Source of the DNA: an uncultured Verrucomicrobiae bacterium
GTDB lineage: Bacteria; Chlamydiota; Chlamydiia; Chlamydiales; Rhabdochlamydiaceae
Reading direction: 5' to 3'
DNA: 16,699 nt
Assembly: GCA_963813135.1 (NCBI GenBank)
Contig: CAWEXY010000005.1
Span: 1 to 16,699, forward strand
The position numbers and the translations under genes are program-made. Below are positions 552 to 16,699 of this stretch, in pieces (position 1 is the first letter of the stretch; each line of letters starts with the position of its first letter). Under the pieces are notes generated by a model, which worked only from the letters and a program-made list of their open reading frames with translations, did no database searches and was not told the origin of the DNA.

Positions 552-1311
552 GCGATTTACACCCGCAGAGAAAATTTTCGACCAGGCTTGCAAGGTAAAT
601 AGGAGCTTCCTGCGGGGGAAAATGTCCGGCGCCTTCGCAACGCTGCAACGATGCATTCGGATACCAAACAAGAAAAGTCTTTCGCATAAGCTCTTCCGAT
701 CCTTCCATATCATGCTCTCCAAAGATCACGAGCATCGGCGTTTTAAGCCCTTTGACCTTATCGGAAAAATCGGTATTAGAAAACATCTGCAAAAAGCCAA
801 AGCGCGCCTCTGACGTAGAGCAGTTCCGCCAACTCTGCACCATACGTTTCACCACAAAGTCGTTATATCTCCGACCCGTTGACAGACGAATGCACTCCAT
901 ACCAAAATCATCATTGCCCAGCGCTGCCGCTTCCAAAAATCCCATGATTTCGGGGGATGCCGGCAAGCCACACGCGGGTGCCGGCGTAATTGCAATAATA
1001 CTTTTGAGTTGGGAGGTGTAATCAAGAGCCATTTTTTGCGCAATCATTCCAGACATGGAATGGCCCATCACGTGGAACTCCTTCCATCCTAACGAACTGG
1101 CGACCTTCATCGCATCTTGGGAAGCCTCTTCCACTGTGTAAGATCCTTTAATATCTTTAGACATTCCGTAGCCACGCAGGTCCATAAAGGCGTAGGTATA
1201 TTGATCCGTGTCAAAGTAAGGCATCATCGGCTCATAACTGGTACAGTCACAAAACCAATTGTGCATCACTAAAACTTTTTCTGGGCCAGAACCTAATAAT
1301 TTGTAGTTCAT
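544..1311 (-). CDS. alpha/beta-fold hydrolase (esterase/lactonase-like)
   Basis: Nucleophile elbow GHSMSG, DLRGYG motif, VIFGEHD acid, GAGHF catalytic His. The oxyanion loop is HNW rather than HGx. Confidence 0.9.
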   Translation of the reverse strand: MNYKLLGSGPEKVLVMHNWFCDCTSYEPMMPYFDTDQYTYAFMDLRGYGMSKDIKGSYTVEEASQDAMKVASSLGWKEFHVMGHSMSGMIAQKMALDYTSQLKSIIAITPAPACGLPASPEIMGFLEAAALGNDDFGMECIRLSTGRRYNDFVVKRMVQSWRNCSTSEARFGFLQMFSNTDFSDKVKGLKTPMLVIFGEHDMEGSEELMRKTFLVWYPNASLQRCEGAGHFPPQEAPIYLASLVENFLCGCKSHV

Positions 1312-1338
1312 TTTTTCTCCAGGGCTTAGTTGTCGTGT

Positions 1339-2439
1339 TCAGGCAAGAATAGGCGCAGGCTTCTTGTTTAAAAATTTAACCGAAAGTTGATATACTTTCC
1401 TCTCAATAAAGAAAAAATATAGGAAGGCTACAAGAAGGGAAAAGGCCATTAAAGCCAGCATCATACTAACAGTCATCGTAAGCCCCCACTTTTGAAAAAG
1501 CCGTCTTGCACCATTGAAAATCGGCTGGTGAATTAAATATATCGAAAAGGAGGCCTCTCCCAAAAACACCAGGATTTTGTTGTTCAAAAAGCGGCGCGCA
1601 CTACTGCCATTGCCTAAGCAGCATAACAACATCAAAACACTGAAAATAGCCGGAAGGGTAGAATATAAATAGATGGCATATGGAGAAAAATAATATCTGC
1701 ACATCGCAATAGTCAGTATTGACGCCAACATTACGATGAGGGGATTCATTTTGAATTTTGAAAAGGCTGCCGGGTTCTTAAAATAGGACCTGCATAGCAA
1801 AATGCCCAACAAAAATTCTGGCAATCTAAAGATGGGGAATACAAAAAAGAGCCAATGGGCAAATGGCTTAATGCTGAATATAACCCAGACCGTTTCCAGC
1901 AATAGCTTAGCCCCGCAAAGGCTTAAAAAAAGGATCCATAAGCTCTTTGTTGACTGTTTTCTTAGGAAAATGAAAGAGAGATAGAAAAACCATTCAACCG
2001 ATAGAGTCCAGGTGACCCCATTGAAACAAAAATTAATCGAGCGGTCGGGAATAAATGATTGTAGAAGAGTTAAATTTAAGACAGCTTTGGCAATATAATG
2101 GAAAAAATTTTCCCCTGCCACCAATGGCAGCACAAAAGTGAACCCTGCTATCGTCAGTGAAACTATCCAATGATTAGGAAATACTCGCGATAGTCTTTTG
2201 ATGAGATACGATTTCCATCCGGACCAATTCTGAGAAGCGTAACAAATAACAAATCCGCTGAGAATAAAGAAAAAGGAAACGATTCCACGTCCAGTATGCA
2301 AAATATATTTATCAAGAAATACGATAAACGAATTGTTTGTATAAAGCCCTAAGTTTAGATGATGAATAACTACGAGCAGGGTACAAAATAACCTAATCGA
2401 AGTGAGGCTATCAATTCTCGGATAATTTTCCTGCGGCAT
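1339..2439 (-). CDS. Acyltransferase-3 (OafA/YrhL-like) integral membrane O-acyltransferase
   Basis: RIDSLTSIR, VSFFFILSGF, KRLSRVFP, WTLSVEWFFY, GEASFSIYLIHQP and IER motifs; many TM segments. ATG 2439 is preferred over TTG 2445. Confidence 0.9.
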   Translation of the reverse strand: MPQENYPRIDSLTSIRLFCTLLVVIHHLNLGLYTNNSFIVFLDKYILHTGRGIVSFFFILSGFVICYASQNWSGWKSYLIKRLSRVFPNHWIVSLTIAGFTFVLPLVAGENFFHYIAKAVLNLTLLQSFIPDRSINFCFNGVTWTLSVEWFFYLSFIFLRKQSTKSLWILFLSLCGAKLLLETVWVIFSIKPFAHWLFFVFPIFRLPEFLLGILLCRSYFKNPAAFSKFKMNPLIVMLASILTIAMCRYYFSPYAIYLYSTLPAIFSVLMLLCCLGNGSSARRFLNNKILVFLGEASFSIYLIHQPIFNGARRLFQKWGLTMTVSMMLALMAFSLLVAFLYFFFIERKVYQLSVKFLNKKPAPILA

Positions 2440-2445
2440 TCTCAA

Positions 2446-3174
2446 TTAGGGAAAAAACCTTCTATATTCAGCGATACAAGCTCGAATAGGCAGATTACCG
2501 TTAAATTCTATCAATACATTCTTATTTTTATAGTATTCGACTGTTTCTATCAGATAGGGTTCGTACGTGTCGATCCTATTCTTGGCATTTACTGCATTGT
2601 CTGTATCCCTTTGCGCGAGAGGGCTGCCGCATAAGTCGCAAAGGCCCACCTTTTGAGGAGGAAATGACTTTAAATTGTAAATGTAATGACATTGACTGCA
2701 AGTTCTTCTATTTAAAATTCTTTGAAGACACTCATCTTTATTAGTATTTATATAAACAAAAATAGGGGATATATTCATATTTTCGTGTAAAAGCCCATCA
2801 AGATGCTGTGCCTGCTCTAAAGTTCTTATATGCCCATCTAAAATATAGACTTGGGGAGGCGAGGAATTAATCTTTCTTACTAAATCGGCTGTAACTTCTT
2901 TTACAACACCGATCGCTAAAATCCCATAAACTCGAATTTCCTCTTTCCATCTAAGGCCAACATCAGTCCCATTTCGGAACTCATTTCGTAAAAAATCACC
3001 AAGAGAAATATGAACAAAACCTTTATCGTTCAAGGATTGAGCAAAAGTGCCCTTGCCGGCACCCGGATGGCCTAGCACGACGATGACAGTAGATTTTTCT
3101 GTTGCAGCAGATGTCGAAAGGAAAAAAACTATAAATACAAACAAGAAACGAATAAAAAAGAAATTGTTTCTCAT
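2446..3174 (-). CDS. Adenylate-kinase-family NMP kinase with an N-terminal signal/anchor sequence
   Basis: P-loop GHPGAGKGT, HISLGDFLR, LDGHIRT (cf. LDGFPRT), zinc-type LID CSQC...CDLC. The N-terminus MRNNFFFIRFLFVFIVFFLSTSAA is hydrophobic. ATG 3174 is preferred over TTG 3198. Confidence 0.85.
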   Translation of the reverse strand: MRNNFFFIRFLFVFIVFFLSTSAATEKSTVIVVLGHPGAGKGTFAQSLNDKGFVHISLGDFLRNEFRNGTDVGLRWKEEIRVYGILAIGVVKEVTADLVRKINSSPPQVYILDGHIRTLEQAQHLDGLLHENMNISPIFVYINTNKDECLQRILNRRTCSQCHYIYNLKSFPPQKVGLCDLCGSPLAQRDTDNAVNAKNRIDTYEPYLIETVEYYKNKNVLIEFNGNLPIRACIAEYRRFFP

Positions 3175-3207
3175 AGAAGAAGCTCTTCGTTGACTCAATT
3201 TAGTTTA

Positions 3208-4236
3208 TTAGAAATCAGCGCCCCTTTCCCAATCCTTTAGGAAAGTGCTAAAAACGGGGTTAATATAATCATCGGATTGAGTGATAAGGCCTAATTCTCT
3301 AGTATAATCAATACTGTTGGTAAAGATATTACAAGACCCAAAATACATTTTCTTGAGCTCATCATCATCGATATCAATCATAATAACTTTTGAGTGAATA
3401 AAAGGTTCTCGAACAATCCTAATCTCTGCCCCAAAACGAGCAATCATTTTAAAATAATAGCTTGTATTAAGAGATTGCTCATTGAAACCAAAAAAATGAG
3501 GAGTATTGAGCACGAACACCTTCACGGATTTTTGCAGCAAGCCCTGTATAATCGAACAAATAGACTTGTCATTAAAATCTGACGCATAAATGTGTATGGA
3601 TTTTTTCGAGCTTAACAGCAATTCTTCTAAGGCCTTGCGTTGGTTCTCTGGACCAACAACAAAACCTAATCTTTCAAGCTGCTGCCCTTGATGTTCTAGA
3701 TTATTATAATCTCTAAAGAAAAAATCCCTTAGCGCATCGACCTTTTCCTTATCTGAGATTGTGAAACAAAAGTCACGTTTTTCGCATTTTGGAGAAGTTG
3801 CGATAAAGGCTAAATCATCTGCTACTAGCAGCTTGGGGTGATTGATATAGTATTTTCTATTTAAATAGTGAGGATAGATATTGTTATCGGTAAGAGTGTT
3901 TAGAAATTCAATATCTCTTTGAAGTCTCTCTTTCATGTTTTTTAAGGTTTGAATATCTGTGCCAAATTTCTTGGAGAGCAAAGTATAATCTGAGCCAACT
4001 TCAAAAAAGGGATTCGTTATTAACATGTGGACCTTCACTCCCCTATTGCGCGCATGGACAACCTCTTCCGCAAATTCTTGAGTGGGTATAGATAAAGCTG
4101 AGAAAGCAATGATTTCCTTGGCTTTTTTTAAACACTCCATTACGAAATCGGTATTCATTTCGGGGTGTATAAGAACTTTCGGGATGGAGTTAACATCTGA
4201 ATTATCAAAGCATGTTGGGCAAGACAAGGTTTTCAT
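3208..4236 (-). CDS. Phospholipase D superfamily protein (two HKD motifs)
   Basis: HPKLLVAD and HSKVIMID...GSCN, followed by RELGLI. Confidence 0.85.
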   Translation of the reverse strand: MKTLSCPTCFDNSDVNSIPKVLIHPEMNTDFVMECLKKAKEIIAFSALSIPTQEFAEEVVHARNRGVKVHMLITNPFFEVGSDYTLLSKKFGTDIQTLKNMKERLQRDIEFLNTLTDNNIYPHYLNRKYYINHPKLLVADDLAFIATSPKCEKRDFCFTISDKEKVDALRDFFFRDYNNLEHQGQQLERLGFVVGPENQRKALEELLLSSKKSIHIYASDFNDKSICSIIQGLLQKSVKVFVLNTPHFFGFNEQSLNTSYYFKMIARFGAEIRIVREPFIHSKVIMIDIDDDELKKMYFGSCNIFTNSIDYTRELGLITQSDDYINPVFSTFLKDWERGADF

Positions 4237-4284
4237 TGACTTAATCCATTTAACTATAACGGATAATTGCTAATCTTATCAAGA

Positions 4285-5100
4285 TTAACTGCCTGTGGAG
4301 CAGTAGCGTCGAACGCCAAAACGCCAAAACTGACAGGCTAGAAAAAGAAACACTATACCGGCAGCGGGTGCTATGACGCCCAGCCAAAAAGGAATTACCT
4401 CATGCTGCAGCAGAGCCGCAATAGGATAATAAGCAATGCATGCAAGAGGGATCAGAAAAGTAAAAATAAGACGATATAATTGATTATAAACACTCATCGG
4501 ATATTGTCCTGCCTGTAGACCTCCATAGGTGGCAATATTCATAAGCTCAAGGGCTTCAATGGTCCAGAAGGAGATCGTAGCCTGCATAATAAAGAGGCCG
4601 TAGAATAGGCTAGCTGCGCCCAGCACAGAAAAAAAGATAATCAAACTTTGTATGGAAAATAGGGTAAATGAGAGTTCATGAGCGCTCCAAATCAAGACGA
4701 TCAGGCCTTGCAAAAAGCGACCTATACGCATCACCTGCACATCACGGACAGCCATTTGAAATAATGAACTCATGGGCCGCAGAAGAACCCGATCAAACTC
4801 TCCTTGCTTGATCATTTGGCTGAATGTGTCAAAACCACGAGCAAAAGCTTCGGCAAAGGCAAATCCTATCTGGACAATGCCATAAATCAGTCCCACCTCA
4901 AACAGGGTCCAGCCTTGAACCATTTTGAATCGATCGAATAAAACCCAGATCCCTAATATGTCAATGAATGTTCCAAAAAAATAACTCATCGACAGCATCA
5001 AAAAGGAGGCAGGATATTGTAACTGCGAACGGATAGGAACAGCAAGAAGTTTCCAAAAGAGCATCCCATTAAGTTTAACACAAGCCCAATTACGGGGCAT
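4285..5100 (-). CDS. ABC-2 type transporter permease (ABC2_membrane_6/DUF990-like)
   Basis: QYPASF, GWTLFEV, GEFDRVLLRP, YPMSVY, PLACIAYYP and RRYCSTGS end; about 6 TM segments. Alternative ATG at 5064. Confidence 0.88.
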   Translation of the reverse strand: MPRNWACVKLNGMLFWKLLAVPIRSQLQYPASFLMLSMSYFFGTFIDILGIWVLFDRFKMVQGWTLFEVGLIYGIVQIGFAFAEAFARGFDTFSQMIKQGEFDRVLLRPMSSLFQMAVRDVQVMRIGRFLQGLIVLIWSAHELSFTLFSIQSLIIFFSVLGAASLFYGLFIMQATISFWTIEALELMNIATYGGLQAGQYPMSVYNQLYRLIFTFLIPLACIAYYPIAALLQHEVIPFWLGVIAPAAGIVFLFLACQFWRFGVRRYCSTGS

Positions 5101-5118
5101 CTTCCTAGAGAATACAGG

Positions 5119-6210
5119 TTATGAAGAAAAAGGCTTAGATAGAGGGAGCCTTTGGAGAAAATAGGATTTTTGTTTTCTTATATAGTCGTCGTCTATTGCA
5201 TGGCGATTTAATATAGAAACAACCTCCTCAACATCATCAACCTTCAAGAATAAAGCCAAAAACTGACTTGTGTAGAATATAAAAAAGACAAAATCCGAAT
5301 AATCATGAAAATGTTTGAAATTAGATGGATAGACATGCAACTGAAGCCCCTCGTTTTTGCATAACTGTAACAAAGGTTCATTTACATCCCATAAAACGCA
5401 ATCAACTCCAACAAACTTGTTTTCATTTATTGAAACTTTCAATGAATTCAAGAATTCGGCGTTATAAAACATACGGTTTTTTACAAGATATTTATCATCG
5501 GTATTCTCCAATCCGAAAATTTGTTTTGTATTAATCTGGGGCACAATTTTTATATGCCTATCATTATCTACTCTCATCTCGATCAGCTTTTTCAGTGTTT
5601 GTTCACTAGAAGAAGTGAAATATATAACATCAAAATCTATCGTGGAGGCTGGTTCATTTTTGACTCGGTCCTCTATCCACTCGATGCATTTAGTCGCAAC
5701 AGAAGGACTTTTAATATCAATATTCAGGATGAGCGGCTTTTGCCCTAATTCAGCACGTATAGAATTTGCTTCTTCAACTAGATCGAAAACTTCCATGAGC
5801 TTGGGAGCCTTCTGACCATCTGGGCCGACAGACCACCCTAAAAGATCTGACAAATTCTTTTTACTTACGCAGAAACTATCTTGGGTTTCCTTTTCTGGTA
5901 ATGCAAGACCATCTCTATCCATTCCATAAACGTTTTTCCACAACTCATCGTCATGAATTACTAAAAGGTGTCCGTCTTTTGTCTCAAAAACATCCATTTC
6001 TATGCCATCAGCACCCAAGATAATTGCTTGTTTGAAAGATTCAATCGTATTTTCTGGCATCGCATCAGCAAAACCTTGATTTGATAAACCCATACCTCGA
6101 TGTCCGATGATATAAAGCTGCGTAGGCAGCAAAGACTTTTGGGAAATGCAGCCTTCCATCTTTTCAATTTCAGCTGGAGAAAACATTATTCCGGGAAAGC
6201 GTAATTTCAC
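5119..6210 (-). CDS. Glycerophosphodiester phosphodiesterase (GDPD) family protein
   Basis: [40 protein letters not shown]. The GTG start overlaps the nudI TGA (GTGA). Confidence 0.88.
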
Positions 6211-6689
6211 TGAACTAGCTCTTCTGCAGGAACAGTGGCGAGTGGAACTGAGAGCCCGCTTGGTAAAAAGCCTTTTTGCACAAACGTCCGACGGGTCGCC
6301 GCGTTTAAATCATAGTCTTTTAAATTGTCAGCTGGCACCCATGCGTATTCAACAAACTCCTCATTATGCTCGATGTCGTCGTTTTCAGCTAAGCAATCAA
6401 AAATTAAATAGATCATATAGACCCATTCTTTTGTCCCATCCGCATGAATCTTTTCACGCACATCATCCCTAAATGTCCAAGGAACAATTTCAGAAATGCG
6501 AAGGGCGCTTCCCAGCTCCTCCGCGATTTCTCGATGGAGAGCTTCTAACATTTTTTCACCAGGCTCGATTCCGCCACCTGGGCAACACCACTGCCCTGGA
6601 TAAACTCCCCTATTGGGGGGCATTTTGCAGATTAGATATTCGTCACGAACATTGCGTATAAGGGGACAAACGATCACGCGCGTCCTCAT
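6207..6689 (-). CDS. nudI: Nudix nucleoside triphosphatase NudI (YfaO)-like
   Basis: [11 protein letters not shown]...LICKM...RGVYPGQW, Nudix box [46 protein letters not shown] and YDLN.ATR, all recalled features of enterobacterial NudI. An AGGAG lies 7 nt before ATG 6689. Confidence 0.85.
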
Positions 6690-7212
6690 CGACATTCTCC
6701 TGGTAGTTTTTATGACAGATCATCAGCGCCATATTATCCACTTTCTTCCAAAAGCGAAATCCCGCTTTCTCATAAGCGCGAATAGCGGCGGCGTTAGAGA
6801 CGTCAGGATCGACAAAACAGGCATCAAAATCATTCCAAACGCGTGTGGAGAGAATTTTTTTGATGCTCGATGATCCGTATCCTTTGCCCAGAACGGAAAC
6901 CTCTCCGATAAATATGTCGATGGCGGCCAGCCGCGGATGATCGATTTCATATCCTTCTCTAGGAAAGTGGCCTGCATTATAGTATTGGATGTATCCGATC
7001 GGCAGTTCATCTAGATAAATAATAAATGCATGCAGAGGTTTTTTCTCTTGTCCAATCCATTTATATCCTTCGATATAAGTTCCATATTTCCCTTGAACCA
7101 GGCTCTCGGTCCACACGGTGCCCCGATCCCAAAAATTTTGGACATGGGGCGCATTGAGCCAGAGAAGAAGAAGAGAAAGATGGTCTTGCCGCAACGGCTG
7201 GAAAGAAATCAT
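6643..7212 (-). CDS. GNAT N-acetyltransferase (AAC(6')-Ib/Acetyltransf_8-like)
   Basis: [28 protein letters not shown] and [18 protein letters not shown] motifs. ATGA overlap with the upstream carrier gene. Confidence 0.85.
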
Positions 7213-7958
7213 AGCTTTTCTCTATTAAGGCAATCGATCAAAATAACACTGGCAACACTATTGACCACCCTTATGAAGGCGCTAAGCGGCAGTCCTCGAA
7301 GCAGCGTACGTGGAGCCTCATTGAAAAAAGTCAGTTTCACATTGTGCCCCATTTTTCTTGTGCTGGCAAGATCAAAGGGAGCCGAAGTTAAGCTCACGAG
7401 CAGAGCCGCACCTGTGCCCACGGCCGCCAGCTGCCCCACCGTCAACTTTTCTTGACCTGCATAGGCTAAATAGCGGCTCCGAAGGTCCTTTTGTGCCGTT
7501 AGAAACACCACCCAAGCGACAGTCAGCTTGGCCCAATGGGGCGCAAACCCTTGAAAGATCGAATAAGTTTTATTTTCTTTCGCTATAGAAACGATACGAC
7601 GTTGTTCAAGGGGAATGGAAACAACTGCGCTCGCTGTCCCAATGGTCAAACCCGTCACGGCCTGCTGGGTTAAGGGGCCCAGATCCCAGCGTTCTAGAAA
7701 GGAGGGCATTCCGACAACGATGGGCCAAGAAAGCGCCTTCAAGCATGTTTTACTAATCTCTTGCCCGAATCCATGATAAAAAACGCCGCAACCGTTTTTT
7801 TTGAAAAGCCGCCAAGCTATGTCATGGCCTCTTTCCTGATTACCTAGCTTTTGTTGGTGAATTTTCACAACCTCGAATGGATACAGGAACGTATCTACAA
7901 ATAAATTCCGCGCAAGCCCCAAAACGGAGCTAGATAGAGGATTGGAGTCCGAGCTCAT
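7209..7958 (-). CDS. Mitochondrial carrier family (SLC25/MCF)-like protein, ~249 aa
   Basis: Three repeats with the Px[DE]xx[KR] signature (YPFEVVK, IPLEQRR, degenerate APFDLAS), each preceded by a small-residue helix and followed by [YF]xG-like motifs (FYHG, IFQG, LLRG). ATG 7958 overlaps the MFS stop (ATGA). Confidence 0.78.
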   Translation of the reverse strand: MSSDSNPLSSSVLGLARNLFVDTFLYPFEVVKIHQQKLGNQERGHDIAWRLFKKNGCGVFYHGFGQEISKTCLKALSWPIVVGMPSFLERWDLGPLTQQAVTGLTIGTASAVVSIPLEQRRIVSIAKENKTYSIFQGFAPHWAKLTVAWVVFLTAQKDLRSRYLAYAGQEKLTVGQLAAVGTGAALLVSLTSAPFDLASTRKMGHNVKLTFFNEAPRTLLRGLPLSAFIRVVNSVASVILIDCLNREKL

Positions 7959-9181
7959 GCGGCCGCAAGCACCTGTTTTTTCTTCTTGGCAAACGCCAAA
8001 CATCCAAAACTGGCGATCGCAAGGGCCATCCAATACCAAGAAACGCTGGCTACCGTCCCCGTCTGTTTAAATAGCCAAAGAGAAATAGCGGCCGTTGGCC
8101 CGCCGAGCAGTTGCGAACCGAGGGCATATCCAAACGAAATGATCGCATATCGATGCGCCGTGGGAACCAGCTGCTGGGCCCATGCATGAAACGGGGCAAA
8201 AAAAGCGACGCCGAAGAAGACAAAACAAACTCTGACGCAAATGACCGTGAAAATGGAGGCGTTTTGCAGCGACGTCAGCAGCAGTGTTGCGGTGAGGGCA
8301 ACGCAAAGAGCCGTACCCATCATGAGCTTCTCCCGAGAGATTTTTGAGGCGACCCACCCAAAGAAAGGCAGAGCGCAAAAATCGAGTACGAGAAGACCTG
8401 TGTTCAGGCTCATCATATCGGTCTTGGAAAGGCCTGTAATGAGAGGAACAAAGCCGTTCATCAAAACGAGCGCCATCGTGTACGTGGCGTAAGCGAAGCC
8501 CGCCGTGACCACGATGAAAAATAGCGAACGCCTCTCCTGCCAAAAAACTTTGAGCAGGGAAGGCGTCTTAATGGGCGGCAAAAACGGCAGATGCCGCCGG
8601 ATCAGAAGTCCAAAAAGGCCTGTTACGCAGCCCAGAGCATAAAGAATGCGCCATCCTTGATCGATGATGTGGAAATACGAAATGGCCGCAACTCCTGCCG
8701 AAGCTAGTAAAATGCCCCCAATCGTCGACGCGCTGTAAATGCTGCTGATCATATCATGTTTTTTTTCAGGGGCGCCCTCGAGAACATAGATCGCGCCGCC
8801 CATCGTCTCACCGGAGGAAAAGAAATTTTGTAAAATTCTTCCTATGCAGAAGATCACGGGTGCGAGGAGGCCGGCCGTTGCAAAAGTCGGGCTGAGGGCG
8901 ATGCAAGCTGAAACGACCGCCATGCCGCCGAGCGTGAGAAAAAGGGCTTGTCTGCGCCCATAGGCATCTCCAATATAGCCAAAGACCAAGGAACCTATGG
9001 GGCGGGCAAGCATGCCGAGCGGGATCATCGCATACGTTAGAATGAGGGCCACGAGGGGCTCCTTATCGGGGAAAATAAGAGGCGCTAAAAAGGGGGTCAG
9101 AAAGCCAAAAAGAGCCGCGTCGTAATGCTCAAAGAGATTGCCGAAAACGGCGCTCCATAATCTTAATTTTGAAATACTCAT
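7955..9181 (-). CDS. MFS transporter, MHS/ProP-like family; probable thiamine or thiamine-precursor transporter
   Basis: GNLFEHYD, RPIGSLVFGYIGDAYGRR (motif A), RILQNFFSSGE; about 12 TM segments. Lies directly downstream of a TPP riboswitch, so the substrate is inferred. GGAG is 7 nt before ATG 9181; alternative GTG at 9187. Confidence 0.88.
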   Translation of the reverse strand: MSISKLRLWSAVFGNLFEHYDAALFGFLTPFLAPLIFPDKEPLVALILTYAMIPLGMLARPIGSLVFGYIGDAYGRRQALFLTLGGMAVVSACIALSPTFATAGLLAPVIFCIGRILQNFFSSGETMGGAIYVLEGAPEKKHDMISSIYSASTIGGILLASAGVAAISYFHIIDQGWRILYALGCVTGLFGLLIRRHLPFLPPIKTPSLLKVFWQERRSLFFIVVTAGFAYATYTMALVLMNGFVPLITGLSKTDMMSLNTGLLVLDFCALPFFGWVASKISREKLMMGTALCVALTATLLLTSLQNASIFTVICVRVCFVFFGVAFFAPFHAWAQQLVPTAHRYAIISFGYALGSQLLGGPTAAISLWLFKQTGTVASVSWYWMALAIASFGCLAFAKKKKQVLAAA

Positions 9182-9438
9182 AATCACTCTCCCTCCGCCG
9201 GCATTATCCAGGTCAGGTTATTTTAAACGCGAGTTCATGATCAGCACCCATGAATATCGGTATCTTTCAGTGCCTTTTGCGCCAAAACTCGCTTGCTGGC
9301 GGCGTCTTCGACGCCAGCTTCGCTTATTTTGGTGCAAAATCCACCTGAAATCTCACCGATCTTAACTGGGCGGAGATCCCGAACTCGCGTTTGTTAAGGG
9401 TTTTTCTCAGCCAATATATTTTGGCACCCCTGGTGGTT
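9182..9438 (-). promoter_or_regulatory. TPP (thi-box) riboswitch, aptamer interrupted by a ~168-nt insertion
   Basis: Minus strand, 5' half: AACCAC-CAGGGGTGCCAAAATATATTGG-CTGAGA-AAAACCC (9438-9398). 3' half: AACCTGACCTGGATAATGCCGGCGGAGGGAGAGTGATT (9219-9182). Both halves match the TPP consensus, and the 3' end overlaps the SD of the MFS gene. Confidence 0.9.
9225..9392. mobile_element. Palindromic MITE-like element inserted in the riboswitch
   Basis: Perfect 12-bp terminal inverted repeat AAACGCGAGTTC (9225-9236) / GAACTCGCGTTT (9381-9392). Nested inverted pairs ATCGGT/ACCGAT, TTTCAG/CTGAAA and TTTTGCGCCAAAA/TTTTGGTGCAAAA surround a central GGCGTC-TTC-GACGCC. No transposase. Confidence 0.72.
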
Positions 9439-9450
9439 TTTGATGCGATT

Positions 9451-9459
9451 ATTATGACA
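9451..9459 (-). promoter_or_regulatory. Putative extended -10 promoter for the riboswitch leader
   Basis: The minus strand reads TGTCATAAT about 12 nt upstream of the P1 5' strand. No clear -35. Confidence 0.35.
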
Positions 9460-9492
9460 ATTTGAATGATTTCCAGCTAGAAAAAGTCTTTC

Positions 9493-9521
9493 TTGATCAA
9501 ATTTTGTCTTTCTCTTAAGGT
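9493..9521 (+). promoter_or_regulatory. Putative sigma70/66-type promoter for the rightward operon
   Basis: TTGATC-N17-TAAGGT, about 25 nt upstream of ATG 9546. Confidence 0.3.
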
Positions 9522-9545
9522 ATCTGAAAACCAGAGAGCTTGCAC

Positions 9546-10373
9546 ATGATTCTCGTCTACCTCCTACTAATACTGGCCACTCCCCTATCTGCAGCAGACC
9601 TTTGGAAAGGAAAGGAATACGCGCAAAACTCCGAATCTCAGCGCGTGTCTGCAGTGGCATTCCTAGAAAAATTATCGCTGGAGGGCAATGAGAAAATCTT
9701 AGACGTCGGATGCGGAGATGGAAAAATCACGGCAGAGATCGCCCGCATTCTCCCGCGAGGCTATGCTGTGGGGGTCGACATTTCTCCCTCGATGATACAA
9801 ACGGCAAAAACTACTTTTGCCGATCGAGAAAACGTTCATTTTGTTATCCGCAACGCTGCAGAGCTCAATTATGTGAATCAGTTCGATATCATTACCTCGT
9901 TCCGCGTGATGTTCTGGGTTCTTGAACAAGAAAAAGCGCTGCGTTCGATGTATACCGCTCTTAAAGACGGCGGAAAAGTATGCATTCAAATGCCCACAGG
10001 CCTTCCCGCCCCTTTACTAGAGGCCATACAACTTACGACTTCTCAAGATGCTTGGAAAACTTATTTTGCCGGATTCAATCCCCCTTGGCGCTTTTATCAA
10101 CCCGATGAGTACCGGGCCCTTCTTTTAAGAGCGCAGCTAACGCCTAAGCGCATCGAGGTCGTGCACAAAGAAGAATACTTTCCTTCTCGCGCAGCTTTCC
10201 ATGGCTTTATTCGCCAATGGCTCCCGTACTTATGGCCCCTTCCCGAACATTTGAAAGATAAGTTCCTCTCACAAGTGATCGATCTGTATCTTCAAAAAAC
10301 AGGAACTTCTCCCAATGGAAAAGTCCCTTTCTTTCTGGACCATTTAGAAGTCGAAGCGGTGAAAAACCCATGA
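9546..10373 (+). CDS. Class I SAM-dependent methyltransferase (Tam-like) with signal-peptide-like N-terminus
   Basis: ILDVGCGDG, GVDISPSM, FDIITS and LKDGG motifs; N-terminus MILVYLLLILATPLSAAD. Confidence 0.88.
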   Translation: MILVYLLLILATPLSAADLWKGKEYAQNSESQRVSAVAFLEKLSLEGNEKILDVGCGDGKITAEIARILPRGYAVGVDISPSMIQTAKTTFADRENVHFVIRNAAELNYVNQFDIITSFRVMFWVLEQEKALRSMYTALKDGGKVCIQMPTGLPAPLLEAIQLTTSQDAWKTYFAGFNPPWRFYQPDEYRALLLRAQLTPKRIEVVHKEEYFPSRAAFHGFIRQWLPYLWPLPEHLKDKFLSQVIDLYLQKTGTSPNGKVPFFLDHLEVEAVKNP

Positions 10374-11032
10374 ATTTAGTCATCGAAGCCAGAGAAACGC
10401 GCATCTTGGGAGCCTGTTTTGAAAACGATGAACTTGTCGATGCCTTCATGTTTTCGGTTCCTCTGGCCGATGAATTTTTAAAACGCCTCGAAGGAAAGAA
10501 CTTTGAAAAAATTCTCATCGCCCCGGCACATAATGGCGCTGCTGATGCCGTCCAAAAAATTCTGCCCGCGGGCGTAATAATGCAGCCCAGCCGCTTCTCT
10601 AAGCTTTGGCAAGAAAGAAAGCCTCTAACCTCTAGTCAGATTGCTAATATCTATGGCGCCTTGTATCATTTTCCTTCGAACGATTGCATCATCATTGACC
10701 TAGGCGAGACAATGCGATGCGATTATGTGACGAGCCAAGGGCAATATCTAGGAGGAGCTATTTTTGCTTTTCAAGCATCGGCAGACAAGCCAGCGGATGT
10801 CCTCGCCGACGAGCAGGCCACCGGCGCCTATTTCGGCTTGCTAGGCGCAGCCGAGAGAATAGCCGCAGAATTGCGCGCGACCTCTGCATCGCCCAGTACC
10901 GTCATGGCGATTGCTACAGGACTGCCTACCGCAAGCGAAATGCTTTCCGACGACTTAAGTGATTTTGTCGATGCCATCGATCCCTATTTGGCGATGAGAG
11001 GATTAAATGAAATTCTGAAGGAGAATAAATAA
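10370..11032 (+). CDS. Type III pantothenate kinase (CoaX)-like protein, degenerate motifs
   Basis: DCIIIDLGETMRCDYVTSQGQYLGGAI, IATG and DPYLAMRGL match the CoaX layout, but the DxGNT, GADR and DxGT motifs are substituted. ATGA overlap with the methyltransferase. Confidence 0.65.
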   Translation: MNLVIEARETRILGACFENDELVDAFMFSVPLADEFLKRLEGKNFEKILIAPAHNGAADAVQKILPAGVIMQPSRFSKLWQERKPLTSSQIANIYGALYHFPSNDCIIIDLGETMRCDYVTSQGQYLGGAIFAFQASADKPADVLADEQATGAYFGLLGAAERIAAELRATSASPSTVMAIATGLPTASEMLSDDLSDFVDAIDPYLAMRGLNEILKENK

Positions 11033-11033
11033 C

Positions 11034-12629
11034 ATGTCAGCCACAGCAAAAGAACTTATTTTCGAAGAAGATGCGCGAGAAAAACTCCGTTTAGGGATAG
11101 AACAGCTCGCCGATGTCGTAGGCGTCACGCTCGGCCCCAAAGGCCGCAACGTCGGCCTTCAAGCCAGCTGGGGCGCGCCGAATATCACCAATGACGGCAA
11201 TAGCATCGTTAAAGACATCGAATTTAAGGACCAATATCTCAACATGGGCGCTCTCATGGGCAAAGAGGTCGCTTCCAAGATGAAAGAAACATGCGGCGAT
11301 GGAACTACTACGAGCATTCTGCTTCTCCGCTCGCTCGTCCAAAACGGCGTGAAAAATATCGCATCGGGATCCAGCCCCATCGGCCTCAAGCGCGGCATGG
11401 ATAAAGCCGTCGACGCCATCCTCCAAGAGATCGACAAAATGGCCATCGCGATCCAAAGCGATGATGAAATTCAAAATATCGCCACCGTCTCCGCTTCCAG
11501 CAACACCGAAATTGGCCAACTCATAGCCGAAGCGATCAAAAAAACAGGCAAAAAAGGTGTGATCACCATCGAAGAGGGCAAGACCACTGAAACGGCCATC
11601 GAAATGGTCGAAGGCATGCAGTTTGACCGCGGATATAGCAGCCCCTACTTCTGCACCAACCCCGAAACTCTCACCGCAGAGCTTGCCCAGGCCAAGCTTC
11701 TCATTACGGATAAGAAAATCACCTCGGCGCAAGAAATCTTGACTATCCTCCAAGGCGTCGCAAGCACAGGGCAAGAGCTGCTCATCATCGCCGATGACAT
11801 CGACGGCGACGCTCTGTCCACTCTCGTCGTCAACCGCCTGCGCGGCCTCTTAAAAGTCTGCGCCGTGAAAGCGCCCGGCTTTGGCGATCGCCGCAAAGCA
11901 ATCTTGGAAGATATCGCCATTTTGACTGGCGCCACCGTCATCTCAGAAGATAAAGGAATGACCCTCAAAGATGCGGGCATCGAGGTGCTCGGCGAAGCGG
12001 AAAAGATCATCGTTTCAAAAGAGGCGACCACTCTCGTCGGCGGCAAAGGCGATGCCAAGGCCATCGCAGACCGCGTCAAGCAGATCGAAGTCGAGTCCCA
12101 AAAAGCCGCCAATGCCTATGACAAAGAGAAGTTCGATGAGCGCAAAGCAAAAATGTCCGGCGGCGTCGCCGTCATCAACGTCGGGGCCGCAACGGAACCC
12201 GAAATGAAGCAAAAAAAGCAGATGTTCGAAGATAGCTTGAACTCGACAAAAGCAGCGCTGGAAGGAGGGATTGTTCCCGGTGGCGGAATCGCCCTACTAC
12301 GCGCCAGCGCGGCCCTGCAAAACATGAAACTGCAAGGCGATGAGCTGACCGGCGCGCAGATCGTCTTTAAATCGTGCGAAGCTCCTTTCCGTCAAATCGC
12401 GCAAAATACCGGGTTCGACAGTTCCGTCATACTCGATGAAGTTCTTTCTAAAGAGACAAACTTTGGGTTTAATGCCCTCTCAGAGAAAGTCGAAGACCTC
12501 GTCAAAGCTGGCGTGATCGATCCTGCCAAAGTTGTGAAGAGCGGACTCAAGTTCGCCGCCTCAACCGCCGGCATGGTCCTACTTTCTGAAGTCCTCATAG
12601 GCGATGCTCCTGAGGAAGAAGAAAAATAA
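11034..12629 (+). CDS. groEL: Chaperonin GroEL paralog (no adjacent groES, no GGM tail)
   Basis: TLGPKGRNV, TNDG, GDGTTT, EGMQFDRGY, KAPGFGDRRK, GGVAVINVGA, GIVPGGG and GVIDPAKV motifs; ends in APEEEEK. Confidence 0.97.
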   Translation: MSATAKELIFEEDAREKLRLGIEQLADVVGVTLGPKGRNVGLQASWGAPNITNDGNSIVKDIEFKDQYLNMGALMGKEVASKMKETCGDGTTTSILLLRSLVQNGVKNIASGSSPIGLKRGMDKAVDAILQEIDKMAIAIQSDDEIQNIATVSASSNTEIGQLIAEAIKKTGKKGVITIEEGKTTETAIEMVEGMQFDRGYSSPYFCTNPETLTAELAQAKLLITDKKITSAQEILTILQGVASTGQELLIIADDIDGDALSTLVVNRLRGLLKVCAVKAPGFGDRRKAILEDIAILTGATVISEDKGMTLKDAGIEVLGEAEKIIVSKEATTLVGGKGDAKAIADRVKQIEVESQKAANAYDKEKFDERKAKMSGGVAVINVGAATEPEMKQKKQMFEDSLNSTKAALEGGIVPGGGIALLRASAALQNMKLQGDELTGAQIVFKSCEAPFRQIAQNTGFDSSVILDEVLSKETNFGFNALSEKVEDLVKAGVIDPAKVVKSGLKFAASTAGMVLLSEVLIGDAPEEEEK

Positions 12630-12645
12630 AAAAGGGAGGTACGTT

Positions 12646-13671
12646 ATGTGTGATTTGTTGAAGAAATCGATCGTATTTTTTGGCATTTGGTTAGGTGCTG
12701 TCAGCGCTTCCGAAGTGGAAGTGTTGGACCTGGATGTTATTCCCTACGAAGCTTTTGTCCGCGATGACCCGGCTGCATTGGGCGTGCTGAAGAAAGCGCT
12801 CCACGAGAAAGGCATCGTCGGGATCCGCGGGATTCCTGGATATAAAGAAAAAGTCCTTAACTACATTCAAATAGCCCGGCAATTTTCTGCCCTTCCTGAA
12901 GAAGTTAAAGAAAGCTATGCCCCAAACCACGATCTTGGGGAGACATTTCTCGGCTACGAAAAAGGCAAAGAAAAATTCAAGCGCCCGGATGGCCGATGGG
13001 TTGTCGACGATCTCAAAGTCTCCTATTACGGATTTGTCCCTGAAAACTCCCTCAACAAGTGGCCTCGTGAAATGGATTTGAGTACTCCTTTTCAAGAATT
13101 AGGAGGCTTGATGTCTGAAATGGGCGAAGCTGTCATGAAGAAAATTGGGCTTGTCGGGCCTGCCACGGGCATTTCTTTAGATGGAACACCCCGCGTGGGA
13201 CGCATGCTCTATTATCGAAAAGCCGAAAATAGCGCCGTTGACAATCCTTTCTGGTGCGGCGCTCACTTTGATCACGGCATGTTCACAGCGCTCCTCCCCG
13301 CTTTTTATTTCGTAGATGGAAAAGCTGTTCCCGAACCTATAGAAGCCGGTCTCTTTGTTAAAACAACGTTAGGAGAAGTCTTTAAGAAAGTTATGGCAGA
13401 CGACCCCGAAGTCATGATGTTTCAAGTGGGAGAGTTTGGCCAACTTGTAACCAACGATGGGATTAGAGCTACCGAGCATCGTGTTCATAAAGCAGCGGGT
13501 TCAATAGAACGCTATACGATGGCGCTCTTTTTTGAGGCTCCCATGGAGACCACGATCCATTCCACTTCCGAGCTGACCAAAGATAGCCGGTACGGAGGTA
13601 TCGCAGGAGACGCTTGTACCTATCAACGATGGGGTGAAGAATCCTTCAAACGCTACATCGTGAAAGAATAA
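12646..13671 (+). CDS. 2-oxoglutarate/Fe(II)-dependent oxygenase (IPNS-like) with signal-peptide-like N-terminus
   Basis: HxD motif (AHFDHG), distal His (TEHRV), RYT (RxS/T). GGAGG lies just upstream of ATG 12646. Confidence 0.82.
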   Translation: MCDLLKKSIVFFGIWLGAVSASEVEVLDLDVIPYEAFVRDDPAALGVLKKALHEKGIVGIRGIPGYKEKVLNYIQIARQFSALPEEVKESYAPNHDLGETFLGYEKGKEKFKRPDGRWVVDDLKVSYYGFVPENSLNKWPREMDLSTPFQELGGLMSEMGEAVMKKIGLVGPATGISLDGTPRVGRMLYYRKAENSAVDNPFWCGAHFDHGMFTALLPAFYFVDGKAVPEPIEAGLFVKTTLGEVFKKVMADDPEVMMFQVGEFGQLVTNDGIRATEHRVHKAAGSIERYTMALFFEAPMETTIHSTSELTKDSRYGGIAGDACTYQRWGEESFKRYIVKE

Positions 13672-13692
13672 AAAAGCTTGCCCAAATTTTGA

Positions 13693-13726
13693 AGGGCCAT
13701 TTTGTTGACCTCAACAAAATGGCCCT
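13693..13726. terminator. Perfect 16-bp inverted repeat between convergent genes; probable bidirectional terminator/stabiliser
   Basis: AGGGCCATTTTGTTGA-CC-TCAACAAAATGGCCCT. There is no strong U-tract on either side. Confidence 0.6.
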
Positions 13727-13759
13727 CGCTTAAGAGGAAGCTGTAAAATGGAAAAAGAC

Positions 13760-15334
13760 TTAAAAATCTTTCTCTTTGTGGATGAGGTGCCCCAGTCCGA
13801 AGCTATGCAGAAGCTGGGCCGGCTCTTCTTGGACCTCAGTGAGAAGAAGCCGCGCCTCTTCTTTTAAGCATCGCTGCTCCAATTCCCTGAGCGCATGAAG
13901 GCCTGTCGCATCGAGAAGCGGAACATGGAGCATTTTGAGCACAAAAAACTTTGGCCGATGAGGCAGATTTTGGAATGCATCTTTGAGCCGATCCGCCACC
14001 CCAAAGAAAAAAGGGCCCCGGATCTCGATCACCTCGATGCCTTTCTCGGTATCTCGATGCGCATTGGATAATAATTGCTGATTCTCGCTCATGCGCTTCA
14101 TGAAAAGAAATGCCGCTAGGATCATCCCCACTTCCACCGCCACCGTGATATCGACGAGGACGGTGAGCAAAAAAGAGGCCAGTAAGATAACGACATCCCC
14201 TTTCGGAGCTTTGAGCAGGTGGATAAAGAACGGCAAATGGCTCATATTCCATGCCACGACAATGAGGACGGCCGCCATAGCTACGAGAGGAATGGCCCCG
14301 ACCAGCGGGGCAAAAAGTAAAATGACTAAAAAAACGGTAGCCGCATGGATCATGCCCGCGAGCGGCGTCTGAGCCCCCGATTTCACATTCGTCGCCGTAC
14401 GGGCAATCGCTGCCGTGACAGGAATGCCGCCAAACGCGATCGAGCCTAAATTGCCTATCCCTTGCGCTACCAGTTCGCAGTTGGACTTATGCCGCGTTCC
14501 CATCATACCGTCGGCAATCACCGCGCAAAGAAGAGACTCAATAGCAGACAAAAGCGCAATCGTAATGGCATCAGGGAAAACATCCAAAACACGGCTCCAC
14601 TCTAAAGAAAAACTGGGGGCCGGAAGCGTCCGGGGGATTTCTCCGAAGCGCGAGTTGATCGTCTCAAGGGGCAGATGAAAGAGCGCCGCAACGAGCGTGG
14701 CTGCGACGATCCCCCCGATTGCCCAGGGAAAAGAAGGAACATATCGACGCAGACCCATCAGAAATAAGAGCGTCCCAAAGCCGAAGGCGAGCGTTACCGG
14801 GTCGCACGTCGGCATAGCTAAAAAATAGACTTTCCATTTAGCCAAGAACTCGGCGGGGACGGGCCCGGTTTGAAGACCAAAAAAATCTTTTATTTGAGAC
14901 GAAAAGACGATGACGGCGATCCCCGTTGTAAAGCCCGTTGTAAGAGGGGTAGGAATAAATTTAATTAAAGAGCCTAGACGAAAAAGGCCCATGGCGATGA
15001 GCATCAGCCCCGCTAGGAAGGTCGCAACAACCAATCCCTCATAGCCATGCCGTTGAACGATAGAATATACTACCACCACAAAGGCGGCCGTAGGTCCCGA
15101 AATCTGCACACGGCTCCCCCCAAAAAGAGCGACTAAAAAACCTCCGACAATGGCGGTATAAAGCCCTTTTTCAGGGTCCACGCCCGAGGCGATCGCCAGC
15201 GCCATCGCGAGGGGGAGGGCGACCAAGCCGACAGTGACGCCAGCCAGTAAATCTTTTTTGAAAAACTGGCGCTGGTACTTGCGCAAAAGCAAATAAGATT
15301 TTGGGATGAATTCCTGGTAATTTTTTAATCGCAT
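13760..15334 (-). CDS. SulP/SLC26 anion (sulfate/bicarbonate/dicarboxylate) permease with C-terminal STAS domain
   Basis: DLLAGVTVGLVALPLAMA, GLYTAIVGG, GGSRVQISGPT, NCELVAQGIGN, RTATNVKSGA, and STAS motifs GPFFFG and LDATG. Confidence 0.93.
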   Translation of the reverse strand: MRLKNYQEFIPKSYLLLRKYQRQFFKKDLLAGVTVGLVALPLAMALAIASGVDPEKGLYTAIVGGFLVALFGGSRVQISGPTAAFVVVVYSIVQRHGYEGLVVATFLAGLMLIAMGLFRLGSLIKFIPTPLTTGFTTGIAVIVFSSQIKDFFGLQTGPVPAEFLAKWKVYFLAMPTCDPVTLAFGFGTLLFLMGLRRYVPSFPWAIGGIVAATLVAALFHLPLETINSRFGEIPRTLPAPSFSLEWSRVLDVFPDAITIALLSAIESLLCAVIADGMMGTRHKSNCELVAQGIGNLGSIAFGGIPVTAAIARTATNVKSGAQTPLAGMIHAATVFLVILLFAPLVGAIPLVAMAAVLIVVAWNMSHLPFFIHLLKAPKGDVVILLASFLLTVLVDITVAVEVGMILAAFLFMKRMSENQQLLSNAHRDTEKGIEVIEIRGPFFFGVADRLKDAFQNLPHRPKFFVLKMLHVPLLDATGLHALRELEQRCLKEEARLLLTEVQEEPAQLLHSFGLGHLIHKEKDF

Positions 15335-15361
15335 AGGCTACAATCAATACAGAGGTATAAT

Positions 15362-15734
15362 ATGAATCATTCTAAACGTCCCATGACAGCTCAACTTCGA
15401 AAAAAAATGCGCAAGGCCATCAGAAGCGCGGTCCCCAGACCTGAAGAACGACTTACCAATAAAGATATCAAGGCCGAAGATCTCTTGTCCACACTTCGCC
15501 CGAAAAAAAAAGAAAAAAGAACTCGAAATCTTAAAATCTGTCGAAAAATCTCTTAAAATTAAAAAACAAAAGACCGCTAAACAATCGAAGCGCACCACTC
15601 CAGGCCGCGTCGATGAAGAGCGAGAACAGCCTGCCGCCCCTCATTTCGTGCATGTCGAAGGCGTTCGTTGGACAAAAACTCTCCAAAAACAGACACTCGC
15701 GCAGAATAAAATCATGTCGCGCAAAAAGAAATGA
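15362..15734 (+). CDS. Small Lys/Arg-rich hypothetical protein (~123 aa), frameshifted at an A9 run
   Basis: The ORF from ATG 15362 (AGAGG upstream) stops at 15556. Removing one A from A9 (15503-15511) continues it as KKKKKELEILKSVEKSLKIKK...VDEEREQPAAPHFVHVEGVRWTKTLQKQTLAQNKIMSRKKK to TGA 15734, which forms an ATGA overlap with the next gene. Confidence 0.6.
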
Positions 15735-16580
15735 CGCTCCGTTTTGCTCAGATCTCAGATCTTCATTACGCCCATGCGTCTTGGAACCCCCGGCAATTTT
15801 TTTCAAAGCAATGGCTGGGGAATTTTAACCTGCTGCTCTTTAGAAAAAAGCAGTTCTTGCCCGAGAGGCTCGATCACCTCGTCCCTTTATTGAAAGAAAA
15901 AGGAATTAACAACCTCGTCGTCTGCGGGGATATCTCGTCGACCTCCCGCCATGCGGAATTTGCTATGGGAAAAGCGTTTATTGAGAAAACAGGCATCAAA
16001 ACGCTAGCGGTACCGGGGAACCACGATCACTATACACGCCAGGCCTATCGCGAAAAATGGTTCTATGATTATTTCCCTGCCAAGTACCAGGGCGAGTTCA
16101 ACCTCAAAGACCATAGCGTGGCCGCTGAAAAATTAGCTCCTGGATGGTGGATGGTCCTTCTCGATACAGCCATCGCAACATCCCTTGCCTCCTCCGAGGG
16201 TCTTTTTTCTATCGTGGCAGAAGCCCACTAGAAAGGCTCCTGCGCCAAATCCCTGAAACCGACCGCATCATTTTGGTAACCCACTACCCTCTTTTCTCTC
16301 CGGACCATGATCGCAAACAGCTTCTGCGCGCCTCAGCTCTGCAAGCGCTGCTCCGCCGCCACAGCAACGTCAAACTCTATCTCCATGGCCATACCCATCG
16401 CCACTGCATCGCCGACCTCCGTCCTGACGGACTGCCGATCCTTCTCGATGCAGGAACCGTCTCTTTCGAAAACGAGCGACGTGCAATTTCTTCGAAATTT
16501 CTGATCAACAATGCACCATCGACGTCTATAGCTTTGGCAATAAATGGGAAAAAGAACGGAGCACTTCTTTTACGTGGTAA
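15731..16580 (+). pseudogene. Calcineurin-like metallophosphoesterase (Icc/CpdA-like), broken by two -1 frameshifts (possibly sequencing errors)
   Basis: SDLH, CGD and PGNHD are in the first frame (to 16231). THYP and LHGHTH are in the second frame. A third frame gives a plausible C-terminus ...ATCNFFEISDQQCTIDVYSFGNKWEKERSTSFTW* ending at 16580. Confidence 0.8.
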
Positions 16581-16699
16581 AAAAATGGTATAGAGACGGA
16601 CTCCGATTCCAATGCACCGGATGCGGCAAATGCTGCACGGGAGCGCCGGGTTATGTTTGGGTCACCCCCGAAGAGATCGAAGAAATTGCGGCCTCTCTG
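16574..16699 (+). CDS. YkgJ-family (CxxCxxCC) cysteine-cluster protein, partial
   Basis: Not in the ORF track. GTG 16574 gives MVKKWYRDGLRFQCTGCGKCCTGAPGYVWVTPEEIEEIAASL and runs off the window. Confidence 0.82.
   Translation, partial: MVKKWYRDGLRFQCTGCGKCCTGAPGYVWVTPEEIEEIAASL

Follow-up and report, generated by a model that had tools for sequence, protein, structure and literature searches.

The stretch of DNA analysed here, called the window throughout, covers positions 1-16,699 (16,699 nucleotides) of contig CAWEXY010000005.1 from the assembly GCA_963813135.1 of an uncultured Rhabdochlamydiaceae bacterium, which is a draft of 31 contigs and 1.83 Mb that is 82% complete. On its minus strand, the leader of a gene for a transporter of the major facilitator superfamily (MFS) contains a thiamine pyrophosphate (TPP) riboswitch aptamer, which is split within the junction J2-4 by a 166-bp palindrome that is, with near certainty, a mobile element. 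Read along the minus strand between 9000 and 9600, the order is a promoter-like site, the sequence CACC-A-GGGGTGCC...GGCTGAGA...ACCC-TTA, three linker bases, the long palindrome, seven linker bases, the sequence ACCTGACCTGGATAATGCCGGCGGAGGGAGAGTG, ATT, and the ATG of the transporter gene. The features of the locus are as follows.

9540..10373, plus strand: methyltransferase gene, divergent, which bounds the leader region and is syntenic in a genome of the same genus
9448..9475, minus strand: promoter-like site (TGGAAA, 16 nt, AATAAT) from a consensus scan with 9/12 matches, which is weak evidence
9395..9435, minus strand: aptamer 5′ half, with the P1 5′ strand (CACC), P2, P3 (GCCAA/TTGGC), J3-2 (CTGAGA), the P2 3′ strand (ACCC) and then the U-U-A start of J2-4
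9392..9394, minus strand: left J2-4 linker (ACA), between the A53-equivalent and the element, holding the decayed left target copy (aaca, including the A at 9395)
9226..9391, minus strand: palindromic mobile element, 166 bp, delimited from 16 aligned copies
9219..9225, minus strand: right J2-4 linker (TAAAATA), holding the decayed right target copy (taaa)
9185..9218, minus strand: aptamer 3′ half, with A56, P4, J4-5 (GAC), P5, L5 (ATAATG), J5-4 (CGG), the P4 3′ strand and the P1 3′ strand
9187-9196, minus strand: ribosome-binding site GGAGGGAGAG, inside the 3′ strands of P4 and P1
7955..9181, minus strand: MFS transporter gene, 408 amino acids, ATG at 9181, intact (Pfam MFS_1, E 9.4e-19; Sugar_tr, E 1.8e-15)
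7209..8039, minus strand: mitochondrial-carrier-family gene (Pfam Mito_carr, E 1.5e-10)

The promoter-like site lies just upstream of the aptamer, and a CATAAT box is found at the same relative place in the leader of the same-genus genome. An 88-codon reading frame on the minus strand (9394-9660), which is probably not a real gene, shares sequence with both the promoter region and the aptamer's 5′ half and matches nothing in Pfam.

Both halves of the TPP aptamer are intact

The two arms of the aptamer were read directly from the sequence. The first arm, GGGGTGCC...CTGAGA...ACCC, is located at 9435-9395, and the second arm, ACCTGA.CTGGATAATGCC.GCG.AGGGA, at 9218-9185; they are collinear and separated by 176 bases. 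When the Rfam covariance model RF00059 was used at its gathering score of 54.3 bits, it gave no matches over the whole window or over the 1.83-Mb genome to which the window belongs. The same model used in E-value mode on 9100-9560 gave exactly two minus-strand half matches, located at 9329-9441 (30.7 bits, E 3.3e-4) and 9173-9240 (30.2 bits, E 4.5e-4), each of which has local ends and pairs its P1 falsely with bases inside the insert.

The effect of removing the insert was examined with a profile hidden Markov model built from 18 of the 19 TPP matches in 40 related genomes, from which one match, L023, was left out because of its long P3. This profile was used in nhmmer on the native leader and on three script-excised versions of it, standing in for a cmsearch run of RF00059 on the excised sequence. 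The native leader was matched in two pieces, at profile positions 5-58 (22.4 bits) and 58-102 (32.7 bits), while excision, in whichever of the three ways it was done, led to a single match over positions 5-104 of 107, with a score of 61.7-63.7 bits. The split aptamer is the sole TPP match in its genome. These results bear out the original prediction, made from the letters of the sequence, that both halves of a TPP aptamer are present on the minus strand, that a standard covariance search could miss or half-detect the RNA, and that a full-length match would appear upon excision.

The positions in the aptamer are given in E. coli thiM numbering, which was set by aligning the window to the thiM sequence. 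This numbering is consistent with how residues are named in PMC2018614 and PMC3764141, whose passages also supplied the roles of the contact bases. All 20 of the 20 canonical pairs in P1-P5 are G-C, A-U or G-U. The bases that contact the ligand or make tertiary contacts are also all present by direct reading, that is, UGAGA in J3-2, G60 and A61, A69, A70 and G72 in L5, C77 and G78, and the junction bases A53, A56, G83 and A84. Hence, the locus is confirmed as a genuine TPP aptamer split within J2-4.

The insert is a copy of a low-copy palindromic element

The insert bears the terminal inverted repeats AACGCGAGTT... and ...AACTCGCGTT and a G+C-rich apical hairpin of 24 nt. It is closed, as had been noticed originally, by a perfect 12-bp stem (9381-9392 against 9225-9236), which is the end of 26-nt arms that are 81% complementary. 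A BLAST search with the 168-base insert as a query found the sequence once more in its own genome (on contig 10, with 78% identity) and once in the same-genus genome (72%), and the 24-base apical hairpin is identical in these two copies and that of the window. For the apical hairpin, an exact search gave 6 hits among species-representative genomes and another 8 among metagenome contigs, although the identity of the hairpin among these 14 places follows from the construction of the search. The titles of the host genome records name Chlamydiae or Candidatus Rhabdochlamydia metagenome-assembled genomes (MAGs), with one Verrucomicrobia.

The copies were compared in a set of 16 distinct sequences, from which L026 was dropped as a duplicate of L024, as were the loci that were the window itself. 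The copies align with sharp common ends and are 166-168 bp long. All of them start with AACG and 13 end with CGTT, the other three having GTC (L002, L027) or ACGTT variants. The flanking sequences showed a perfect 4-bp target duplication, always AT-rich, in 6 of the 16 copies, a 5-bp duplication in one, a match at 3 of 4 positions in five, and at 2 or fewer of 4 positions in four, as judged by eye. The window is one of these last four, with target-site copies that match at 2 of 4 positions (aaca vs. taaa). The reading frames flanking the element are unrelated between the loci, and cross-locus protein matches cover only the element itself, so the copies are located at unrelated sites. A BLAST search with a consensus-like copy gave 1-4 matches per genome in five genomes. 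The copies are 70-95% alike, and that of the window is 81% identical to its nearest known relative.

The consensus structure obtained with RNAalifold over the family contains 60 pairs, 29 of which show compensatory double changes, and the window copy retains 58 of the 60. The family alignment has 56 cells with G-U pairs against 15 with A-C mismatches, or 32 against 15 when two mostly fixed G-U pairs are left out, which suggests from the pattern of substitutions that the hairpin is selected on one strand, corresponding to the mRNA sense in the window. The orientation of the 16 copies relative to the flanking open frames is mixed. Because the copies have shared ends, target duplications, unrelated sites and a hairpin apparently under selection, the insert is read as a mobile palindrome similar to the MITEs (miniature inverted-repeat transposable elements) and non-autonomous, which we regard as practically certain. 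The literature listing contained no published chlamydial MITE of this kind. The original assignment of the split to J2-4 holds, while the inserted unit is 166 bp (9226-9391), as the comparison with the 15 other copies shows, and not 168. That the insert belongs to a family of mobile palindromic repeats had not been recognized originally, and this makes an insertion its primary explanation, rather than an evolved helix.

Several further properties of the family were recorded. A pattern search for a parent insertion sequence in the 82%-complete genome, allowing up to 2 mismatches, returned the two known copies and scattered singles but no parent, with 7 hits, about the level of the 4 in a reversed-pattern control. 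A consensus scan found neither a promoter nor a terminator on the mRNA strand of the element. The 15 loci of other copies gave no RF00059 match at E<=1, and the only matches there were to tRNAs and, by chance, to microRNA families. Two copies, L002 1980-2143 and L038 208-278, are located within a few hundred bases of tRNA genes. The low copy number, the upkeep of a 60-pair hairpin and the G-U excess are together unusual for a plain MITE, and they hint that the folded strand of the element has a function.

A same-genus genome carries the uninterrupted riboswitch

The empty-site allele that could be expected in a relative was found in the same-genus genome, where an uninterrupted TPP match of 99 nt (64.8 bits) directly precedes the orthologous MFS gene (406/408 codons), and the same neighbors flank this riboswitch-MFS locus on both sides. 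The J2-4 sequence in this genome is TTACAAAC, compared to TTAACA, the element and TAAAATA in the window. When the 6-nt loop of P3 is excluded, the two aptamer cores are identical at 65 of 69 positions, and only 2 of these 69 positions carry a change derived in the window.

The divergence of the flanking genes provides a scale for this similarity. The amino acid identity of the orthologues is 77% for the methyltransferase, with a proportion of differing synonymous sites (pS) of 0.74; 79% for the MFS transporter (pS 0.69), with a ratio of nonsynonymous to synonymous rates (dN/dS) of 0.07; and 55% over 124 residues for the mitochondrial-carrier-family protein (pS 0.70). Hence, 69-74% of the synonymous sites differ between the two genomes, which means that they are saturated. 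Because the aptamer core is nonetheless identical at 65 of 69 positions, it has been under purifying selection nearly all the time since the lineages split, although this says nothing of the period after the insertion.

The insert in the assembly was compared with Logan contigs of other sequencing runs. Contigs from four runs of three studies match parts of the stretch without differences. A contig of run X1 covering 9122-9298 crosses the right junction with 104 and 73 bases on its two sides, and a contig of run X4, which belongs to a different study, covers 9343-9564 and crosses the left junction with 49 and 173 bases, both without differences. These contigs are short, with a depth of 2-3.6, none of them spans the whole insert, parts of the stretch are not covered, and one of the runs may be the source sample. 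An empty-site contig at >=95% identity was absent among these sparse, low-depth contigs, which speaks neither for nor against the insertion. A contig of X4 with a length of 395 nt agrees with 9184-9218 except for 4 differences and continues into the uninterrupted aptamer of a relative. An assembly artefact, which would have undone the original prediction, is opposed by contigs from other runs that bridge both junctions.

The insert is predicted to form a fourth arm in the J2-4 linker

The region 9182-9445 has a predicted folding energy of -111.6 kcal/mol (z = -9.07), and none of 200 shuffled sequences was as stable. The element alone is predicted to form a hairpin of ~60 bp with -87.7 kcal/mol. 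For a transcript starting at 9445, the fold with the aptamer enforced lies 1.8 kcal/mol above the minimum free energy (MFE) in the native RNA and 2.5 kcal/mol above it in the excised RNA. The pair probabilities of P3, P4 and P5 are 0.78-1.0 and are the same in the two RNAs, while that of P1 is 0.74 in the native and 0.34 in the excised RNA. At the level of secondary structure, the insert is predicted to be a self-contained fourth arm without conflict with the aptamer helices. In the 5′ arm of the element, GGTGGATTTT (9336-9345, minus strand) is complementary at 9/10 positions to AAAAACCACC in the region of the P1 5′ strand (9428-9437). This segment is the false P1 chosen by Infernal, the family consensus at this place is GGATGGATTTT, and the two segments could pair transiently during transcription.

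In the window, P2 is still directly followed by U52 and A53 and P4 directly preceded by A56, while the element and its linkers take the place of the two-base stretch U54-C55. The element thus occupies the part of J2-4 that varies in length, the linker separating the conserved junction adenines A53 and A56. According to passages of two structural studies of thiM, A53-A84 and A56-G83 form two stacked tetrads with P2 (PMC2018614; PMC3764141), and in another such passage J2-4 of thiM is said to lack order when no ligand is present and to take up the form of a compact, ordered junction upon binding (PMC11751092). Hence, the structural adenines are spared by the insertion, but it took place at a site whose ordering is coupled to ligand binding.

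A set of 59 other chlamydial aptamers, 19 of them from the 40 related genomes and 40 further ones, was used for comparison, and the length of J2-4 was taken from the 46 that were parsed by pattern. In 41 of these, J2-4 measures 4-6 nt; the same-genus genome has 8 nt there, and the remaining 4 rows have 5 nt by eye. Because the 8 nt belong to the same-genus genome, the genus already had the longest J2-4 linker seen. The window, with 13 linker nucleotides and a 166-nt hairpin, does not have the short J2-4 of a three-way junction.

Position 79, which is a G in the window, is also a G in the same-genus genome and in 12 others. In bound thiM, U62 and U79 are flipped into the solvent, and 2-aminopurine at either position keeps a dissociation constant (Kd) of 320-375 nM (in passages of PMC2018614, including its Table 1). 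Because binding remains submicromolar after this replacement, the base identity at 62 and 79 is not needed for binding as such.

Other TPP-like matches with scores below the Rfam cut-off were observed. The match left out of the profile, L023 (G021:C11:16875-17076), is a TPP riboswitch in a genome of the same bacterial family with a ~100-nt extension of P3, which scores 52.7 bits over 202 nt, just below the cut-off. In the genus g47, nine genomes of ~1.1-1.3 Mb have one sub-threshold RF00059 match each (26-34 bits, mostly 108 nt), such as G048:C1:214717-214786 and G060:C1:134016-134123, which may be diverged or decaying TPP-like elements.

The riboswitch precedes a probable thiamine or TPP importer

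The ATG of the MFS gene is located 3 nt after P1, where the aptamer ends. Among the 19 related TPP riboswitches, 12 also precede an MFS gene, while three precede ThiE, and one each ThiC, ThiM, an ABC ATPase and an open reading frame (ORF) without a family; in 9 of the 19 the downstream reading frame starts within the Rfam match. The MFS protein is thus a probable importer of thiamine or TPP. The Mito_carr ORF overlaps the end of the MFS gene, its start codon being uncertain, and it is probably co-transcribed with it; the order of the MFS gene followed by the Mito_carr gene is conserved in the same-genus genome. A search of the 82%-complete assembly revealed no member of the ThiC, ThiE or thiamine pyrophosphokinase (TPK) families, and because of this the pair of MFS and carrier-family genes is a candidate route of uptake. 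We suggest that it could be an operon for taking up thiamine or TPP from the host with the use of a eukaryote-type carrier. Elsewhere in the window, two overlapping plus-strand frames (15731-16231 and 16144-16593) have matches in the Metallophos family, to its N-terminal and to its C-terminal part, which gives the impression of a single phosphoesterase gene broken up by a frameshift or sequencing error.

Does the interrupted riboswitch still respond to TPP?

We propose that a small non-autonomous element, a 166-bp palindrome making 4-bp AT-rich target duplications, transposed into the leader of a TPP-controlled MFS gene and landed in the only length-variable part of the aptamer core, the J2-4 linker. 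The RNA of the element would pair with itself to form a ~60-bp hairpin with a perfect 12-bp closing stem, which would reunite the aptamer halves, with 3 and 7 unpaired nucleotides left between them, and turn the three-way junction into a four-way junction. The riboswitch itself would be a compact translational OFF switch, in which TPP binding hides the ribosome-binding site directly, without a separate expression platform, because the 3′ strands of P4 and P1 include GGAGGGAGAG, 3 nt before the ATG. Such a switch probably relies on equilibrium folding more than on the timing of transcription, and a delay of 166 nt would then be less harmful to it than to a terminator-type riboswitch. That the insertion took place as described is hardly in doubt. 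Whether the four-way form still responds to TPP and represses translation is evenly balanced, and the explanation as a whole, comprising both the insertion and a still TPP-responsive switch, consequently has about an even chance of being right.

An alternative that is only somewhat less probable keeps the same insertion and takes the switch to be dead. In it, the element would block the compact TPP-bound junction, by itself or in combination with the U62C change, so that the ribosome-binding site stays open and the transporter is made constitutively, and the halves of the aptamer would look intact because there was too little time for their decay. Several observations weigh against a working switch. 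Position 62 is a U in 58 of the 59 chlamydial relatives (all 46 parsed by pattern and 12 of the 13 read by eye) and an A in one, while C62 of the window occurs in none of them. The MFE structure from ViennaRNA pairs C62 with G78, and C62 could pair with G78 or G79; a C62-G78 pair, as modeled, may hold the pyrophosphate pocket closed. The second derived change turns the U64-A75 pair into U-G, which weakens P5. Sampling the phylum more widely, in 151 genomes, gave 64 RF00059 matches over the cut-off, all 90-120 nt long; none has another helix in J2-4, and split halves were present only in this genome. An extra 60-bp helix in J2-4, with its ordering coupled to ligand binding (PMC11751092, in the passage referred to above), could also clash in three dimensions in a way that is invisible to a secondary-structure model, and cleavage of the long duplex by RNase III could separate the halves. 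The 58 of 60 pairs kept in the element are what a young copy would have, and with a young insertion the intact halves say nothing on selection. Finally, in an apparently intracellular bacterium in whose 82%-complete assembly ThiC, ThiE and TPK were not found, a constitutive importer may cost little, and drift could fix the insertion. On the other hand, the target-site copies matching at 2 of 4 positions and the 81% identity to the nearest copy hint that the insertion is not brand new, only two derived changes are present in the 69 core positions despite the saturated synonymous sites, U62 and U79 tolerate base replacement in vitro (according to passages of PMC2018614), and the secondary-structure energetics are unchanged, all of which argue against a dead switch.

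The element could also have been co-opted, in that its hairpin gives a switch that works, fully or in part, a further layer of regulation, either as an RNase III site setting the half-life of the mRNA, or through a cleavage that leaves a two-piece aptamer joined by the lower stem. The genome contains an RNase III gene (113.4 bits), and the long duplex of the hairpin, ~60 bp with its perfect 12-bp closing stem, may be cut by this enzyme. The G-U excess suggestive of selection on one strand, the mRNA sense in the window, is also consistent with co-option. However, the locus is a single occurrence, no other scanned copy is located in a riboswitch, and the copies have mixed orientations relative to the flanking frames, which makes co-option quite improbable. 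The specific combination of a working four-way TPP switch whose 60-bp duplex is cut by RNase III, with the two pieces of the aptamer held together by the 12-bp lower stem, appears unlikely; if true, it would couple TPP sensing to mRNA processing and would be a natural split riboswitch made by a transposable element. The remaining explanation is an assembly chimera, in which a repeat copy was wrongly joined into the leader in this MAG. The assembly is a draft of 31 contigs, 82% complete, and repeats are classic points of misassembly. Yet contigs of runs from two studies cross the two junctions without differences, although one of these runs may be the source sample, and each flank is one half of a single aptamer, with order and strand both correct, as expected of an insertion and not of a random join, which leaves a chimera with very little probability.

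Comparison with known systems and significance

Apart from the insert, the aptamer resembles RF00059 and E. coli thiM, having P1-P5, CUGAGA in J3-2, AUAAUG in L5, CG in J5-4 and the junction adenines. As in a canonical TPP riboswitch, it precedes a gene for a thiamine-related transporter and overlaps the ribosome-binding site, while it differs from one in the J2-4 hairpin with its four-way junction, in C62, and in a native score below the gathering score. It is also similar to TPP riboswitches with a long P3, such as L023 and those in fungi (PMC11683625), in which a large extra stem is tolerated within an aptamer that is standard otherwise and weakens its detection by covariance models. However, these extend an existing peripheral helix, while in the window a new helix arises from the core junction.

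Small mobile repeats in leaders and RNA genes were described previously. In the pneumococcal trp leader a BOX element is located between two T-box riboswitches, and RNA-seq suggested that the regulation still works (Croucher et al. 2011, PMC3049150). The BOX element is likewise a small, strongly folding interspersed repeat co-transcribed in a riboswitch-bearing leader, but it lies between two complete riboswitches, while the element in the window lies inside the aptamer core. In Rickettsia bellii, a Rickettsia palindromic element is inserted in the gene of transfer-messenger RNA (tmRNA) (PMC1458961). This is also a palindromic mobile repeat of an obligate intracellular bacterium in the gene of a structured functional RNA; it differs in the element family, the host phylum and the RNA, and tmRNA has no ligand-sensing junction. 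Among the bacterial MITEs, Correia, ERIC and RUP, which are covered in reviews (PMC10969869; PMC3184786), resemble the element in their size of ~100-170 bp, end in terminal inverted repeats, make short target duplications, lie at intergenic sites and give a hairpin-forming transcript. Unlike them, the family described here is low-copy, with 1-4 matches per genome, and its whole hairpin is kept by compensatory changes. Transcripts of Correia elements are cut by RNase III. The literature searched, which lacked most subscription journals, contained no mobile element inside a riboswitch aptamer. The nearest published cases found in it were the BOX element between T-boxes (PMC3049150) and the palindrome in the tmRNA gene (PMC1458961), neither of which is within an aptamer core.

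The locus is a natural experiment on the tolerance of the core junction in the most widespread class of riboswitches. If the switch works, J2-4 is permissive for a whole extra helix, which bears on riboswitch engineering, on models of the junction and on annotation. With the curated thresholds, a covariance search overlooks this RNA altogether, and interrupted TPP riboswitches may therefore be hidden in genomes that were scored as having none. A dead switch would instead make the locus a dated snapshot of regulatory decay, in a bacterium that depends on a host and is seemingly unable to make TPP. Either way, the window reveals a previously unreported, low-copy palindromic mobile element of chlamydia-like bacteria, the hairpin of which is maintained by compensatory change.

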